Virus record (IMG/VR): IMGVR_UViG_2690316142_000009
Reading direction: 5' to 3' (one strand)
Source of the DNA: a virus
Taxonomy: Duplodnaviria > Heunggongvirae > Uroviricota > Caudoviricetes
DNA length: 7,622 nt
Positions 1 through 6,656 of this stretch are shown piece by piece (the first letter of the stretch is position 1; each line of letters opens with the position of its first letter). The translations under genes and the position numbers were made by a program. The notes beneath the pieces are model-generated. The model searched no databases, had not been told where the DNA came from, and worked only from the letters and a program-made list of their open reading frames with translations.

Positions 1-34
1 AGGAAGGAGTGTCCGTTAAACTCAGGCTACCTCA
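1..34 (-). mobile_element. Terminal inverted repeat (orfA-proximal end) of a second IS3-family copy whose body lies upstream of the window
   Basis: Bases 1-34 (AGGAAGGAGTGTCCGTTAAACTCAGGCTACCTCA) are identical 34/34 to 5645-5678, the orfA-proximal end of the complete IS at 4425-5678. Identity stops at 35 (GGTTATTCGC versus AAAACACGAT at 5679). Same orientation as the complete copy. Confidence 0.6.
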
Positions 35-1478: not shown

Positions 1479-1901
1479 ATGGCGAAACCTTTTACTCCCG
1501 AACAGCGGGAAGAACTGAAGACGCGAATTGTGGAACTCGTGCATCAGGACGGTCGGGTCACGATTCGGCAGTTGTCAGATGAAACAGGTATCAGTCGTGC
1601 GTCTGTCGGTCGCTTATGCATAGAACTGGTCGCAAGTGGTGATGTATATAATTCTGGCTACGGCTTATTCCCGTCTGAACAGGCTCGCAAGGACTGGCAA
1701 AGCGCCCGCAAAAAACTCTCGAGAGTAAAGGTGAGGAAACCGGTTGTTGTTGATCCGGACCTTATCTGGTCATTACCTGACGGAGAAATACGCCGCTACG
1801 ACAGGCGCCTGAATATAATCTGTCGCGAGTGCCGGAAGAGCGAAGCTATGCAGCGTGTACTGGCTTTCTATCAGGGTAATTTTCAGGAGGCGATACTGTG
1901 A
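1479..1901 (+). CDS. Hypothetical protein with N-terminal winged-HTH-like segment (140 aa)
   Basis: GGAGG SD 5-6 nt upstream of ATG 1479. HTH-like stretch VTIRQLSDETGISRASVGRLCIELVASGDV. Starts 15 nt after the DnaC-like gene and is immediately followed by the next gene. Function not recognised. Confidence 0.6.
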   Translation: MAKPFTPEQREELKTRIVELVHQDGRVTIRQLSDETGISRASVGRLCIELVASGDVYNSGYGLFPSEQARKDWQSARKKLSRVKVRKPVVVDPDLIWSLPDGEIRRYDRRLNIICRECRKSEAMQRVLAFYQGNFQEAIL

Positions 1902-1958
1902 ATGAAATTAGCTATCAGGCTTCAATTACCGCTGGCATTCGCATCAAAGGAGAGGAGC

Positions 1959-2315
1959 ATGGAAATAAAACCAGAAGATGAGTTAAGCAATATCGTTTTA
2001 TTTCCGGTAAAAGAGGATGACCCTCGTAATCAGGTTAATTTTCTTTATGAGCCATCGGAAAGACCATATTGCCATCACGCCTCTGTACGGGTTGACGAAA
2101 AAGAGCGTCAGGTCCGCTGTAAAATCTGCGGTGCGGTTGTGGAGCCGTTTGACTGGATGCTCTCTGTGGCAAAAAGAGAAACCAGACTGGCAGATGATGT
2201 AAGGCTATTGCGCCAGGAGGAACAGGAAAGGCGGAGAAATATAGAAAAGCTGATACAGATTGAGCGTAACGCGAAAGCGCGGATACGCAGGGCGACAAAA
2301 TCCAGAACTGAATAA
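1959..2315 (+). CDS. Hypothetical Zn-ribbon-like (C-H-H...C-x2-C) protein with basic, coiled-coil-like C-terminus (118 aa from ATG 1959)
   Basis: The ORF track starts at ATG 1902, which directly follows the upstream stop (TGAATG). The in-frame ATG at 1959 has a much stronger SD (AAGGAGAGGAG ending 4 nt upstream), so 1959 is preferred. Cys/His cluster YCHH...RCKICG, then an Arg/Glu/Lys-rich tail. Confidence 0.55.
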   Translation: MEIKPEDELSNIVLFPVKEDDPRNQVNFLYEPSERPYCHHASVRVDEKERQVRCKICGAVVEPFDWMLSVAKRETRLADDVRLLRQEEQERRRNIEKLIQIERNAKARIRRATKSRTE

Positions 2316-2462
2316 TTAAATTTAGCACTGTTAAAAATTTAATCCTTAACCGGAGGGATTTCTGCACCCTCAAATCATCAGGAGACCACCCGAAAGGGCG
2401 GGGAGCAGTCACACATCTGTTTCCGATAGCCCCGTTCTAATGCTACACTCTTTGATATTTTT

Positions 2463-3149
2463 ATGACCCCAATAAACATATTTATGACAGTTGCTGATTT
2501 CAAACGGCCCAAATTGGAGCTCCCAAACGGGGCAAACAAACTACTACTGCACTCTTGCTGTGCTCCATGTTCCGGTGAGGTGATGGAGGCGCTTCAGGCC
2601 TCGGGAATCGACTACACCATCTTTTTCTACAACCCGAACATTCATCCTCAGAAAGAGTATTTAATTCGTAAGGATGAGAATATTCGCTTTGCTGAACAAC
2701 ACGGCGTGCCGTTTATTGATGCTGATTACGACACAGACAACTGGTTTGAACGAGCCAAAGGAATGGAATGGGAGCCCGAACGAGGGATCCGTTGCACCAT
2801 GTGTTTTGACATGCGTTTTGAGCGGACAGCGCTGTACGCCGCTGAAAATGGTTTCAGTGTGATCAGCAGTTCACTGGGCATTTCACGCTGGAAAAATATG
2901 CAGCAGGTTAACGACTGTGGGCGGCGAGCCGTCGCGCATTATCCGGGCATGGTGTACTGGGATTATAACTGGCGCAAGCAGGGCGGCTCGTCCCGTATGA
3001 TTGAAATCAGCAAGCGCGAAAAATTCTATCAGCAGGAATATTGTGGCTGTGTGTATTCTCTGCGCGATACCAATCTACACCGCAAATCTCAGGGACGCCC
3101 TCTTATCAAAATTGGTCAACTCCACTACGGTAAAGAAGAGAAGGAGTGA
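2463..3149 (+). CDS. queH: QueH-like (DUF208) Fe-S protein, putative epoxyqueuosine reductase
   Basis: 228-aa ORF with Cys motifs [24 protein letters not shown] and YCGCVY, which I recall as characteristic of the DUF208/QueH family. No HMM run. Start uncertain: neither ATG 2463 nor in-frame ATG 2485 has an SD. Confidence 0.55.
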
Positions 3150-3204
3150 TTTTATGGGGCACCTTTCTGATTGATTTCATATTGGCGAGGTAAGTAGAAT
3201 GACT

Positions 3205-3218
3205 GCGGGTGCTTGAGG
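3205..3218 (+). promoter_or_regulatory. hok mRNA 5' fold-back-inhibition (fbi) element
   Basis: GCGGGTGCTTGAGG at 3205-3218 is the reverse complement of CCTCAACGCACCCGC at 3590-3604, apart from a 1-nt bulge. This 5'/3' long-range pairing is the known hallmark of hok-family mRNAs. Confidence 0.5.
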
Positions 3219-3261
3219 CTATCTGCTTCAGGCATGAACACCAAAAGGCAGATAGAGAAAA

Positions 3262-3328
3262 GCCCCAGTTAACATTACGCGTCCGGCAAGACGCTTAACA
3301 TTAATCTGAGGCCAATTTCATGCTTTGC
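3262..3328 (-). ncRNA. sok: Sok-like antisense RNA (approximate extent), antisense to the hok leader
   Basis: Minus-strand sigma70-like promoter: -35 TTGCCT (reverse complement of 3358-3363), 17-bp spacer, -10 TAACCT (reverse complement of 3335-3340). Transcription would start near 3328 and run antisense across the upstream ATG/leader region, as expected for Sok. 3' end not defined; no clean terminator found. Confidence 0.3.
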
Positions 3329-3376
3329 ACATGTAGGTTAGCCTCTTACATGCCGAAAGGCAAGGAGAAGCAGGCT

Positions 3377-3532
3377 ATGAAGCAGCAAAAGGCGATGTTA
3401 ATCGCCCTGATCGTCATCTGTTTAACCGTCATAGTGACGGCACTGGTAACGAGGAAAGACCTCTGTGAGGTACGAATCCGAACCGGCCAGACGGAGGTCG
3501 CTGTCTTCGTAGACTACGAATCCAGGAAGTAA
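3377..3532 (+). CDS. hok: Hok/Gef-family type I toxin (51 aa, membrane peptide)
   Basis: MKQQKAMLIALIVICLTVIVTALVTRKDLCEVRIRTGQTEVAVF... is a near-match to the Hok/Gef family as I recall it, closest to HokD/RelF. AAGGAG SD 10 nt upstream of ATG 3377. The 70-aa ORF-track entry (3320-3532) is the same frame extended to an upstream ATG. Confidence 0.9.
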   Translation: MKQQKAMLIALIVICLTVIVTALVTRKDLCEVRIRTGQTEVAVFVDYESRK

Positions 3533-3589
3533 GAGTGACCGGGCGGGGAGCTGATCCCATCCCCGCCCACCTCTGATGTGTCAGGCATC

Positions 3590-3604
3590 CTCAACGCACC
3601 CGCA
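3590..3604 (+). promoter_or_regulatory. hok mRNA 3' fbi partner element
   Basis: Complementary to 3205-3218 (see that feature). A perfect 9-bp GC-rich hairpin (GGGCGGGGA at 3541-3549 pairing with TCCCCGCCC at 3560-3568) lies just upstream of it in the 3' UTR. Confidence 0.5.
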
Positions 3605-3610
3605 CTTAAC

Positions 3611-3659
3611 CCGCCCATCGCTGTGATCTCTCAGCGTTTCGGCGGGTTTTTTGTTGTTT
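3611..3659 (+). terminator. Intrinsic terminator at the 3' end of the hok transcript
   Basis: Composite helix: CCGCC 3611-3615 pairs with GGCGG 3641-3645, and CGCTG 3619-3623 pairs with CAGCG 3632-3636. Followed by T-rich tract TTTTTTGTTGTTT (3647-3659). Confidence 0.6.
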
Positions 3660-3672
3660 ATTTCCGGTGAAT

Positions 3673-3700
3673 TTGATTCGCGCACCTTCGCAGATAGAAT
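3673..3700 (+). promoter_or_regulatory. Candidate sigma70 promoter for the 95-aa ORF
   Basis: -35 TTGATT (3673-3678), 16-bp spacer, -10 TAGAAT (3695-3700), about 80 nt upstream of ATG 3782. Sequence match only. Confidence 0.35.
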
Positions 3701-3781: not shown

Positions 3782-4069
3782 ATGAAAATCGAAGAATTGC
3801 GTGAAATTTTTAGTGAAAATGGCCTCTATGCTGTGCGCGTTGAGAATGGAGCGATTGTCAGCCATTGCCGCATTAGATGTTTGCAATCTCAACAAAGGAA
3901 GAGCGGTGCTGTGTTATTTTATTTTTGTAATGGACTTCTGACGGACGGTTTTATTTTGCGTGAGGACGAATTTGTCACATCATTACGGGTTTTGAAAGAG
4001 ATTGGTTTTAAGGCTGGTTTTCTGCTTTTGCTGAAGAATAAACTCATCTACAATCTTGAGCAGGATTGA
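3782..4069 (+). CDS. Hypothetical small protein (95 aa), AT-rich moron-like gene upstream of DUF1367 copy 1
   Basis: ATG 3782 with AAGGA about 8 nt upstream. Visibly more AT-rich than its neighbours. Weak N-terminal similarity to the 70-aa ORF at 5773-5985 (EELREIFSENGLYAVRVENGAIV versus KKLFSSKYAVIRRDDLSVIV). Occupies the same position relative to hok as rem does next to hokD in the Qin prophage; identity not verified. Confidence 0.5.
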   Translation: MKIEELREIFSENGLYAVRVENGAIVSHCRIRCLQSQQRKSGAVLFYFCNGLLTDGFILREDEFVTSLRVLKEIGFKAGFLLLLKNKLIYNLEQD

Positions 4070-4107
4070 ACTCCTGCTGTGTAACACCGTGCCACCGGAG
4101 AAAGCCG

Positions 4108-4424
4108 ATGGCACATATACAACTGGTCAAACAAACCTCTTCCGGATTACTTCTCCCGGCGACGCCGGAGAGTTGCGATTTTCTGCATCAAATCAAAACA
4201 GGTGAGTGGATACACGCAGACTTTAAGCGTGTGCGTAACTACGCATTCCACAAGCGTTTTTTCAAACTCCTGCAACTGGGATTCGATTACTGGACTCCGG
4301 TCGGTGGGGCGATCACGCCTCGCGAACGAAAACTGGTGTCCGGTTTCGTTGATTACCTGTGTGAATCAGTAGGCCGGGAACATACGCCAGCTCTGAGCGA
4401 AGCCGCAGAGCAATTGAGGTGTAC
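4108..4424 (+). pseudogene. DUF1367-like nin-region gene, copy 1, truncated after about codon 105 by the IS
   Basis: 4106-4424 is about 97% identical to 6055-6363 (the intact copy at 6057-6656). Identity ends exactly at the IS end (4425, TGAGGT...). The ORF then runs into IS sequence (LRCTGNSGHYHLFFF) to a stop at 4461. GGAG SD upstream of ATG 4108. Confidence 0.7.
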
Positions 4425-4457
4425 TGGCAATAGCGGACACTACCATTTGTTCTTTTT

Positions 4458-5276
4458 TTAAGCAGCCATCTGATGATATTTTTCCCTGAAGGCTGCCGGG
4501 GAGATATTCCCCAGACGAGAGTGACGACGCTGACGATTGTAGAAAATCTCAATGTATTCCCGTATTACTGAGATGGCTTCATCCCGGTTATTAAAACGAT
4601 AGTGGCTCAGGCTCTCATTTTTCAGCGTTCCCCAGAAGCTTTCCATCGGAGCGTTGTCGTAACAGTTACCTTTACGCGACATTGATGTTTTCAGACCAGA
4701 CTGCTCCTGTATGACCCGGTAATCGTATGCGCAGTACTGTGAACCTCGATCAGAGTGGTGGATTAGCCCGGCAGGTGGGCGCTGGCTCCTGAGCGCCATA
4801 AACAGGGCTTTACCTGTCAGCTCTTTTGTCATGCGCTCTCCCATGGCGTAGCCGACAATTTCGCACGTATAAACATCTTTGATGCCAGCGAGGTACAACC
4901 ATCCCTCCTGTGTGGCAACATACGTCAGGTCCGCCACCCAGACCTGATTTGGTGCTGTAGGAGCGAACGTCTGGTTCAGCAGATTTGGCGCAACTGGCAG
5001 ATTGTGGTTCGAGTTCGTAGTCGCTCTGAACTTGCGTTTCTGCTTACAGCGTAGCCTTAGCTCCTTACGAAGACGTGCCAGTCGGTCACGACCAACGATG
5101 ATGCCATTCTCTGCCAGCTCCGTCTGGAGCCGCCGGGTTCCATATGTTTCGCGAGTGCGGATATGTGCCACCTTAATCTCCAGTTTTAGCCGCTCATCAC
5201 TTTGTTTTCTGTCTGAGGGTTCATGCTGTACCCAGTTGTAATAACCGCTCCTGGATACACCAAATACCTGACACAT
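4458..5276 (-). CDS. IS3-family transposase OrfB (DDE catalytic domain), expected to be made as an OrfAB fusion
   Basis: 272-aa ORF. Its frame stays open upstream through the slippery site, and is -1 relative to orfA (manual translation: ...ILKK then SNSVFCTGVAEKYALIEQWRQQFPIEAMCQVFGV..., no stops). Confidence 0.85.
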   Translation of the reverse strand: MCQVFGVSRSGYYNWVQHEPSDRKQSDERLKLEIKVAHIRTRETYGTRRLQTELAENGIIVGRDRLARLRKELRLRCKQKRKFRATTNSNHNLPVAPNLLNQTFAPTAPNQVWVADLTYVATQEGWLYLAGIKDVYTCEIVGYAMGERMTKELTGKALFMALRSQRPPAGLIHHSDRGSQYCAYDYRVIQEQSGLKTSMSRKGNCYDNAPMESFWGTLKNESLSHYRFNNRDEAISVIREYIEIFYNRQRRHSRLGNISPAAFREKYHQMAA

Positions 5277-5311
5277 CGCTTCAATGGGAAATTGTTGTCG
5301 CCATTGTTCGA

Positions 5312-5614
5312 TTAACGCGTATTTTTCAGCGACTCCTGTGCAAAATACGCTGTTGCTTTTTTTAATATATCTCGCTCAAGGCGAGCTTCATTTAACGCCT
5401 TACGCAGTTGCAGAATTTCAGATTCCAGTTCAGCCACCGTGCGGGAACCAGGAGTACCGAGCCCTTTTCTGGCGGCGGTAACCCATTGTCCTAAAGTGCC
5501 TTCAGGAAGAGATAATCGGGAAGCGCCTTCACTGATCGAAAGTTGATTTTCAAGAACCGTTCTGACAGCTTCGGCTTTGAACTCTTTAGAGTAACGTTGG
5601 GTTTTTCTGCTCAT
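5312..5614 (-). CDS. IS3-family transposase OrfA (HTH DNA-binding / leucine-zipper component)
   Basis: 100-aa ORF starting about 30 nt inside the IS end. Heptad-like LxxxxxxL region (ELESEILQLRKALNEARLERDILKKA). Ends 15 codons after the slippery site. Confidence 0.85.
   Translation of the reverse strand: MSRKTQRYSKEFKAEAVRTVLENQLSISEGASRLSLPEGTLGQWVTAARKGLGTPGSRTVAELESEILQLRKALNEARLERDILKKATAYFAQESLKNTR
5357..5363 (-). other. Programmed -1 ribosomal frameshift slippery heptamer (A_AAA_AAA then G) joining orfA to orfB
   Basis: Minus strand reads TTA AAA AAA GCA in the orfA frame. The -1 frame from this point is open into orfB. Classic IS3-family arrangement. Confidence 0.6.
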
Positions 5615-5772
5615 TATTAGCTCCTTCTGATGCCATTCTATTTCAGGAAGGAGTGTCCGTTAAACTCAGGCTACCTCAAAAACACGATCATACACTAAAT
5701 CAGTAAGTTGGCAGCATCACCTTTTGTCTCTATGTTGATATAACCGTTTGTACTTATAAACCTGGAGGCATC

Positions 5773-5985
5773 GTGGAAAAAATAAAGAAACTATTTAGTA
5801 GTAAATACGCAGTCATACGTCGTGATGACCTGTCAGTTATAGTCGAAATGGATTACTTCCCTGAAACCAAAAAATCAATGATGTATCGTAATGGTCGAAA
5901 GGCAATTTTTTTACCGATGAGGGTAAGTGACATTATGGGAAATGATAAACTGCTGGATGAATTGCGAGTCAGAGCATCCTGTTAG
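5773..5985 (+). CDS. Hypothetical small protein (70 aa, GTG start), AT-rich, upstream of DUF1367 copy 2
   Basis: GGAGG (5764-5768) 4 nt upstream of GTG 5773. Begins about 95 nt after the IS end. Weak similarity to the 95-aa ORF at 3782. Function not recognised. Confidence 0.45.
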   Translation: MEKIKKLFSSKYAVIRRDDLSVIVEMDYFPETKKSMMYRNGRKAIFLPMRVSDIMGNDKLLDELRVRASC

Positions 5986-6056
5986 TATTGGCATTAATTC
6001 TGGTATACTACATAACGGGCTGAACACCCATTCTACTGCGCCAGCGGAGAACTACG

Positions 6057-6656
6057 ATGGCGCATATACAACTGATCAAACAAACCTCTTCCGGATTACT
6101 TCTCCCGGCGACGCCGGAGAGTTGCGATTTTCTGCATCAAATCAAAACAGGTGAGTGGATACACGCAGACTTTAAGCGTGTGCGTAACTACGCATTCCAC
6201 AAGCGTTTTTTCAAACTCCTGCAACTGGGATTCGATTACTGGACTCCGGTCGGTGGGGCGATCACGCCTCGCGAACGAGAACTGCTGTCTGGTTTCGTTG
6301 ATTACCTGTGCGAATCAGTAGGTCGGGAACATACGCCAGCTCTGAGCGAAGCCGCAGAGCAATATCTGAATACAGTTGCGACACGCAGAACCCGGGATAC
6401 GGCATTGCTAAAGTCGTTTGAGGCTTTTCGCGAGTGGGTAACCATTCAGGCTGGATTTTACACCGAACATTTTTATCCGGACGGTAGCCGCGGGCGTCGG
6501 GCAAAATCCATCGCTTTTGCGAATATGGACGAAACCGAGTTTCAGCAGGTTTATAAATCTGTTCTGAATGTGCTGTGGAACTGGATTCTGTTCCGTAAAT
6601 TTTCCTCTCCGGAACAAGTCGAAAATGTGGCCGCGCAGCTGCTGGAGTTTGCGTAA
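6057..6656 (+). CDS. DUF1367-like nin-region protein (199 aa), intact copy
   Basis: GGAGA SD 7 nt upstream of the ATG. Stop overlaps the next start (TAATG). N-terminal 105 codons duplicated at 4108-4424. Family label from memory of nin-region proteins (YbcN-like), not verified. Confidence 0.7.
   Translation: MAHIQLIKQTSSGLLLPATPESCDFLHQIKTGEWIHADFKRVRNYAFHKRFFKLLQLGFDYWTPVGGAITPRERELLSGFVDYLCESVGREHTPALSEAAEQYLNTVATRRTRDTALLKSFEAFREWVTIQAGFYTEHFYPDGSRGRRAKSIAFANMDETEFQQVYKSVLNVLWNWILFRKFSSPEQVENVAAQLLEFA

Follow-up and report, generated by a model that had tools for sequence, protein, structure and literature searches.

The window, that is, the whole 7,622-nt stretch of DNA that we analyzed (IMG/VR record IMGVR_UViG_2690316142_000009), contains on its plus strand an ORF of 228 aa at 2463..3149, as given by the six-frame list of its open reading frames, and this ORF carries the gene queH. 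The genes of the window follow each other in the order IstB/DnaC-like ATPase, DUF977, a small zinc-ribbon ORF, queH, hok/sok, DUF1367, YbcO and a DUF1133/Q-type antiterminator. The original prediction had placed the gene in a lambdoid prophage, and this location is borne out by the early-right gene order (replication, nin-like region, Q antiterminator) together with the RefSeq annotation of near-identical prophages. The window is a Rac/Qin-type lambdoid prophage, collinear with prophages of E. coli FDAARGOS_944, 042 and a B-lineage strain and also with the isolated phage HannyBb; the annotated collinear prophages carry cI/Cro-like regulators, YdaT, YdaU, YdaV and lysis genes. An intact queH is likewise found in a derivative of E. 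coli B (NZ_CP115180.1), at 4001-4666 of the extracted locus, within a Qin-like prophage with the order dicC, ydaT-family, DUF977, queH, hokD, rem and Q. Analysis of composition revealed no anomaly marking queH as foreign to the prophage.

The neighboring toxin-antitoxin locus that had been proposed was recovered both as RNA and as protein. The hok/sok type I locus (3207..3532, + strand), a feature of the context that is separate from the enzyme, matched the Rfam sok family RF01794 with 117 bits at 3207-3382 (gathering score 59), while the Pfam family HOK_GEF matched with 79.9 bits a mok-like ORF at 3320-3532, within which the hok CDS occupies 3377-3532. RefSeq annotates "hokD" at the equivalent position in near-identical prophages. 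This neighborhood is largely stable among the 80 IMG/VR prophage contigs considered: DUF977 lies upstream of queH in 66 of the 73 contigs with sufficient flank, and hok is found no more than 600 nt downstream of it in 64 of 78.

We also looked for genes and RNAs that could connect queH with a larger pathway. None of the Pfam assignments of the window corresponds to another 7-deazaguanine gene, as already remarked in the original prediction, and TGT/DpdA or que genes, which would define a DNA-modification system, were neither found in the window nor annotated in the complete HannyBb genome. An Rfam search of the whole window (E≤0.1) returned only sok, with no preQ1 riboswitch or other RNA element. 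The window has no tRNA genes. Two related prophages, in the region beyond that covered by the window, have a tRNA cluster downstream of the Q-like gene (L001 9439-9749, L002 9382-9535) with Met/Ile-CAU, Arg-UCU, Thr-UGU and Gly-UCC, and no Q-substrate tRNA was present in the clusters of the related prophages inspected.

The prophage itself shows signs of decay and rearrangement. A full IS3-family element of about 1264 bp, which resembles IS600, occupies 4415-5678, with orfA at 5312-5614 (-) and orfB at 4458-5276 (-). The first 34 positions of the window (1-34) repeat 5645-5678 exactly, which places the start of the window at the end of another copy of the IS, and this copy truncates a YdaU-like replication-initiator gene. 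The IS copies suggest that the DNA stems from a Shigella-like or otherwise IS-rich E. coli. The initiator gene (35-711) is a pseudogene compared with the intact 263-aa gene of FDAARGOS_944, as a 2-nt poly-A expansion near 240-247 and a 10-bp deletion near 377 leave the ORFs 9-272 and 442-711; the prophage is therefore probably unable to replicate. Despite the destroyed initiator gene, queH matches its counterpart from the intact FDAARGOS_944 prophage with 100% identity. Moreover, the 5' part of DUF1367 is found twice, at 4091-4414 and 6040-6363, with 96.6% identity, the first copy being cut by the IS and the second belonging to a full gene (6057-6656), and the sequence between the IS and the second copy is unrelated and includes an ORF at 5773-5985. 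This duplication looks like the product of IS-mediated recombination between two different lambdoid prophages.

The QueH protein and its cysteine ligands

QueH enzymes bind a [4Fe-4S] cluster together with an extra iron and convert oQ-tRNA into Q-tRNA. The assignment of the ORF to the DUF208/QueH family (COG1636), originally proposed from its cysteine motifs, was confirmed by an HMM search, in which the Pfam profile PF02677 (QueH) matched the ORF with E=1.9e-65 and 220.6 bits, compared with a curated cut-off of 23.5 bits, covering positions 1-174 of the 175 in the profile, a match well outside what chance would give. In the PDB, a search by sequence retrieved Thermotoga maritima QueH (7LC5, E=5e-22, aligned residues 27-203), and other T. 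maritima QueH entries, namely 7LC7, 9DEU and two mutants, matched at about 5e-22. The three motifs are all present in the translation; on the 228-aa form, HSCCAPC spans residues 30-36, RCTMC residues 110-114 and CGC residues 194-196.

The queH coding sequence proper, encoding the epoxyqueuosine reductase QueH (PF02677), occupies 2484..3149 on the plus strand (221 aa and a stop), and the residues below are numbered on this 221-aa form. Alignment with 7LC5 revealed that HSCCAPC (2550..2570, +) provides His23, Cys25, Cys26 and Cys29, equivalent to T. maritima His7, Cys9, Cys10 and Asp13; that RCTMC (2790..2804, +) provides Arg103, Cys104 and Cys107, the cysteine pair being equivalent to Cys87 and Cys90; and that CGC (3042..3050, +) provides Cys187, Gly188 and Cys189, with its cysteines equivalent to Cys169 and Cys171. 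To place these residues in the family, we aligned the T. maritima sequence with 64 diverse near-full-length representatives, drawn from 1.84 billion cluster representatives that gave 4755 matches at E≤0.001. Results showed that the six cysteines (T. maritima C9, C10, C87, C90, C169 and C171) are invariant in 64/64 and that the prophage protein has all six, as well as the Asn, Arg, Lys, Gln, Gly and Ser found at invariant positions of the family. The arginine and both cysteines of RCTMC, and also CGC, are invariant in every one of the 64 representatives.

The position of T. maritima Asp13 deserves attention, as it is Cys in the prophage protein and in 60/64 representatives and Asp in only 4/64, including the crystallized T. 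maritima enzyme. The PDB contains D13N and C9S mutants of QueH, which signals that both residues matter. Cys29 thus places a thiol at this position next to the cluster, where an acidic or thiol residue is expected, on the assumption that Cys and Asp are functionally equivalent there. Because the crystallized enzyme has Asp, details of the metal site are an extrapolation when applied to the majority (Cys) subtype.

The fold was modeled with AlphaFold2 from 26 sequences, giving a model of moderate confidence (mean pLDDT 72.7, pTM 0.73) that is weakest in the loops expected to hold the metals. When this model was compared with the PDB using Foldseek, the best five matches were all QueH, with probability 1.00 and target-normalized TM-scores of 0.74-0.76, followed by other enzymes of the adenine-nucleotide-alpha-hydrolase fold. 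With moderate confidence, the predicted fold thus agrees with the solved QueH structures. The NCBIfam profiles, in turn, contained no model matching the protein; the PGAP name QueH must then stem from another rule, and this null result is not evidence against membership. By every computational test of membership that could be applied, the protein belongs to the QueH family, an identity that was already known, considering that exactly this protein already bears the name QueH in RefSeq for nearly a thousand E. coli genomes.

Start codon, leader and predicted promoter

In-frame ATGs are found at 2463 and at 2484, the second of which the original prediction had given one nucleotide too far downstream (2485). 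Its observation that no Shine-Dalgarno can be recognized at either candidate was correct, as there is none upstream of 2463 or 2484. We compared orthologues and alleles, and the comparison indicates that the true start is almost certainly the ATG at 2484 (221 aa) and not the one at 2463. Chromosomal orthologues start at the Met equivalent to 2484 (the N-terminus of the Erwinia protein is MTNPAFKRAKLELP), and the RefSeq/PGAP CDS in near-identical genomes has 666 nt. In addition, 3 or 4 of the 7 codons between 2463 and 2483 differ in phage HannyBb, all of them non-synonymously, and 1 differs in strain 042, unlike the remainder of the gene, which hardly varies between prophage alleles. Finally, a 1-bp insertion carried by one prophage copy (L153) in the stretch separating these ATGs leaves the 221-aa ORF from the second ATG intact. 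On these four grounds, the start at 2463 was rejected.

A third possibility, a start at Met41 of the 228-aa numbering (2583-2585), which would give a 188-aa form, was also rejected, as the Pfam domain and the invariant CCAPC lie ahead of this Met, in a region whose protein sequence all orthologues conserve. The Met41 ATG is directly preceded by the Shine-Dalgarno-like GGTGAGGTG, which probably misleads gene callers. In the PHROGs collection, the protein falls into phrog_3217, labeled "unknown function", whose profile begins precisely at residue 41. Many phage annotations appear to be too short at the N-terminus and devoid of CCAPC, considering that this profile starts at the internal Met, and such shortening may explain the missing function label in phage databases.

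The segment 2450..2483 (+) constitutes an AU-rich leader without Shine-Dalgarno, including the in-frame ATG at 2463 that is probably not a start codon. Leaders of the same type, AU-rich and without Shine-Dalgarno, precede the chromosomal genes of Scandinavium, Kluyvera, Enterobacter, Symbiopectobacterium and Erwinia, while queH of Serratia and Photorhabdus has a clear Shine-Dalgarno. As the closest chromosomal orthologues have the same leader type, the lack of a Shine-Dalgarno is an inherited trait of the lineage and not the sign of a dubious gene.

Upstream of this leader we identified a predicted extended -10 element, TGCTACACT (2441..2449, +), composed of TG at 2441-2442 and the hexamer TACACT at 2444-2449 and located 43 nt upstream of the ATG at 2484. 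The prediction relies on conservation across genera: every prophage copy has the pattern TGnTAnnnT at 40-45 nt before its start ATG, and the pattern recurs at the same distance in the chromosomes of Scandinavium, Kluyvera, Symbiopectobacterium, Erwinia, Brenneria and 2/3 of the Enterobacter sequences listed, that is, in at least 6 genera besides the prophage copies. By our own estimate, about 0.006 such patterns per sequence would be expected by chance for a 6-position window. Transcription is accordingly predicted to start near 2455-2457. A generic two-hexamer promoter scan found nothing upstream of queH, with counts at the level of shuffled sequences, and it missed TGCTACACT because the -35 is poor; a scan for terminator-like sites found none between 1850 and 3700. 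In most E. coli genomes, homology to the window starts at 2413, about 70 nt upstream of the start, so that the predicted promoter element travels with the gene.

Conservation, distribution and chromosomal relatives

We asked whether the prophage gene is maintained as a coding sequence. The 221-aa ORF is intact in 84/84 prophage copies examined, in which 52 codons are polymorphic, 44 of them purely synonymously. The only amino-acid changes are V3I, N18K, E71K, D144E, K180Q, G211S, E219G and K220Q, and all are located outside invariant positions. Pairwise dN/dS among prophage alleles was 0.02-0.05, at dS up to 0.29, and this pattern of substitutions indicates strong purifying selection on the prophage queH.

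The gene is common in E. coli. A queH CDS is present in 995/5426 complete genomes (about 18%), 985 of which retain at least 80% of it, and queG is present in 5426/5426. Carriers include ST131 EC958, one O157:H7 isolate and an E. coli B derivative, in which PGAP names the product "epoxyqueuosine reductase QueH"; K-12 is not known to carry queH. Among 50,697 GenBank phage records, a close copy was found in 1 isolated phage, HannyBb. A QueH homologue is carried by 25 GenBank phage records, most of which are unannotated fecal-virome fragments or oversized "phage" assemblies; only HannyBb being convincing, the others were set aside as evidence.

Homologues with 76-92% identity are widespread in Proteobacteria. 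The chromosomal protein of Scandinavium is 92% identical and encoded among metabolic genes, that of Enterobacter 89% and near rluE-icd, that of Erwinia 86% and between purL and a glrK-like sensor kinase (6001-6666 in L008/L009), and that of Providencia 84% and adjoining tmcA and purC. The phage neighbors are shared only by HannyBb and the loci of E. coli and E. albertii, and they are absent at these chromosomal loci. The prophage alleles form a tight group with at least 97.7% protein identity, and their nearest chromosomal relative stands at 92% with a dS of about 0.9. These sequence relationships are most simply read as one capture event, in which a lambdoid phage took up a chromosomal queH of Enterobacteriaceae along with its promoter. 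That a captured host gene brought its own promoter is supported by the 86-92% identity to the chromosomal proteins of Scandinavium, Kluyvera, Enterobacter and Erwinia together with the shared extended -10 and Shine-Dalgarno-less leader. In K-12, purL presumably adjoins glrK with no queH at that position; if so, Escherichia lacks or has lost a chromosomal queH and some strains have regained one via prophages.

Possible function and comparison with known systems

Taken together, we consider it likely that the gene encodes a functional, captured QueH that would make the last queuosine step B12-independent in E. coli. According to this model, a Rac/Qin-type lambdoid phage would have taken queH, with its extended -10 promoter and leader, from the chromosome of a relative among the Enterobacteriaceae, and the gene would now be carried as an accessory, flanked on one side by the replication module with its DnaC-like ATPase and DUF977 and on the other by the hok/sok and nin-like region. 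Its product, a cobalamin-independent iron-sulfur reductase, would convert oQ34 into Q34 in tRNA-Asp, -Asn, -His and -Tyr. E. coli cannot synthesize cobalamin de novo, and as QueG needs B12, the prophage enzyme would free the completion of queuosine from external cobalamin. On this view, the enzyme would be active in E. coli, its gene would be transcribed in lysogens from the predicted promoter, and it may bring a fitness benefit. One of the two roles suggested by the original prediction, a boost to the queuosine modification of the host, would fit well with the 86-92% identity to housekeeping QueH, the retention of all invariant residues and the purifying selection. Since QueG is universal in E. 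coli, QueH would be redundant whenever B12 is available. At most a small difference in phenotype is known to us between oQ- and Q-tRNA, and the selective advantage is therefore conjecture.

This redundancy is also an argument for regarding queH as a neutral passenger, a true QueH by descent but useless in E. coli, hitch-hiking beside the addictive hok/sok. With queG in all 5426 genomes, with queH tightly linked to a hok/sok locus that can stabilize the surrounding DNA, and with the prophage of the window degraded, such a passenger is conceivable, but one would expect it to accumulate non-synonymous changes and frameshifts. On the contrary, dN/dS is 0.02-0.05 at a dS reaching 0.29, all 84 prophage copies are intact, 985 of 995 genomes keep at least 80% of the CDS and the promoter-like element upstream is retained as well, making this explanation unlikely. 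Alternatively, the gene might serve the phage itself, being expressed in the lytic cycle by early-right read-through and keeping GUN-anticodon tRNAs Q-modified for phage translation. Such a role would agree with the place of queH in the rightward early region, where it is oriented like the replication and Q genes, with the lack of a terminator-like site from 1850 to 3700 and with the presence of queH in HannyBb, an isolated and apparently viable phage. We nevertheless regard it as very unlikely, considering that queH has its own conserved promoter element, typical of cargo expressed in lysogens, that it is intact in a prophage no longer able to replicate, that the tRNAs of related prophages (Met/Ile, Arg, Thr and Gly) are not Q substrates and that only 1 isolated phage among the 50,697 records has a close copy.

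The second role raised by the original prediction, co-option of the QueH fold for another substrate such as a modified DNA base or another epoxide or nucleoside, found no support in our results, and we give it hardly any credence. In its favor, queH stands alone in the window, unaccompanied by further queuosine-pathway genes, and the diversion of 7-deazaguanine enzymes to DNA modification is known from phages (PMC6884629). However, the protein is nearly identical (86-92%) to housekeeping orthologues and keeps every invariant residue, and the eight substitutions among prophage alleles all lie outside invariant columns. Diverted chemistry is made unlikely by this near-identity together with the lack of TGT/DpdA or que genes in the window and in the annotated HannyBb genome and of Q-substrate tRNAs in related prophages, and the window has no preQ1 riboswitch in Rfam either.

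Returning to a functional QueH that would act for the host, a broader proposal is that Rac/Qin-type prophages, by carrying QueH with a promoter of its own, confer B12-free queuosine completion on about 18% of E. coli strains, that is, a lysogenic conversion of the tRNA epitranscriptome; we hold this tentatively, at somewhat less than an even chance. If true, strains devoid of QueH, for example K-12, would get no further than epoxyqueuosine under B12 scarcity, and the carriers would include ST131, the E. coli B lineage that serves for protein expression and some O157:H7 isolates. Strain-level tRNA modification would then be determined by phages and could affect NAU/NAC decoding as well as metal and oxidative-stress phenotypes, and past oQ/Q measurements could need reinterpretation. 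Cells might also come to rely less on BtuB, a protein that E colicins and phage BF23 use as their receptor. Provided that queH is expressed in lysogens, the prophage would supply a cofactor-independent isoenzyme to a host unable to make the cofactor, and the B and K-12 laboratory lineages may differ in the B12 dependence of queuosine completion.

As an enzyme, QueH is nothing new; it is its prophage context that is under-described. Earlier reports describe QueH as a cobalamin-independent, iron-dependent replacement of QueG for the step from oQ34 to Q34 (PMC5372724; PMC6461909; PMC13443448), state that E. coli makes queuosine de novo (PMC5372724) and attribute to the QueG step a need for a cobamide (Payne 2015, PMC4646009, citing Frey 1988). 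A 2019 survey reported no QueA, QueG or QueH homologues among the viruses it analyzed (PMC6884629), and in the literature that we searched no paper discussing a prophage-borne QueH was found.

Compared with T. maritima QueH (7LC5, 7LC7, 9DEU), the prophage protein shares the full-length Pfam match, the six cysteines, the adenine-nucleotide-alpha-hydrolase-like fold and the length class. It differs in being only about 30% identical, in having CCAPC where T. maritima has CCAPD (Asp13), in a basic C-terminal tail of about 25 residues common to other proteobacterial QueH, and in being carried by a prophage. The chromosomal QueH of Enterobacterales (Scandinavium, Kluyvera, Enterobacter, Erwinia, Providencia and Photorhabdus) is much closer, with 80-92% identity and the same N-terminus, and the closest genera also have in common with the prophage gene the leader without Shine-Dalgarno and the TGnTAnnnT located about 43 nt upstream; the difference lies in the surroundings, as these copies are found amid housekeeping genes (purL-glrK, tmcA-purC, rluE-icd) and the prophage copy between phage replication genes and hok/sok.

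Phage 7-deazaguanine DNA-modification systems are built on DpdA/TGT with preQ0 genes, a combination that is absent from the window and from the annotated HannyBb genome. The gene resembles the "morons" or auxiliary metabolic genes of lambdoid phages in that it derives from a host, has a predicted promoter element of its own, lies between conserved modules of the phage and is found in some related prophages but not in others. It differs from lambdoid morons in that no downstream terminator and no compositional anomaly were detected. QueG (YjeS) of E. coli carries out the same reaction with a fold unrelated to that of QueH and with cobalamin and two [4Fe-4S] clusters as cofactors (PMC4646009). 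It is part of the core genome, being found in 5426/5426 genomes, compared with 995/5426 for queH. A parallel to a cell with both enzymes is Staphylococcus aureus, for which QueG and QueH have been described in one genome and their differential use ascribed to differing cofactor availability (PMC13443448). There the pair is described as a feature of the species, whereas in E. coli QueH is strain-variable and borne by prophages.
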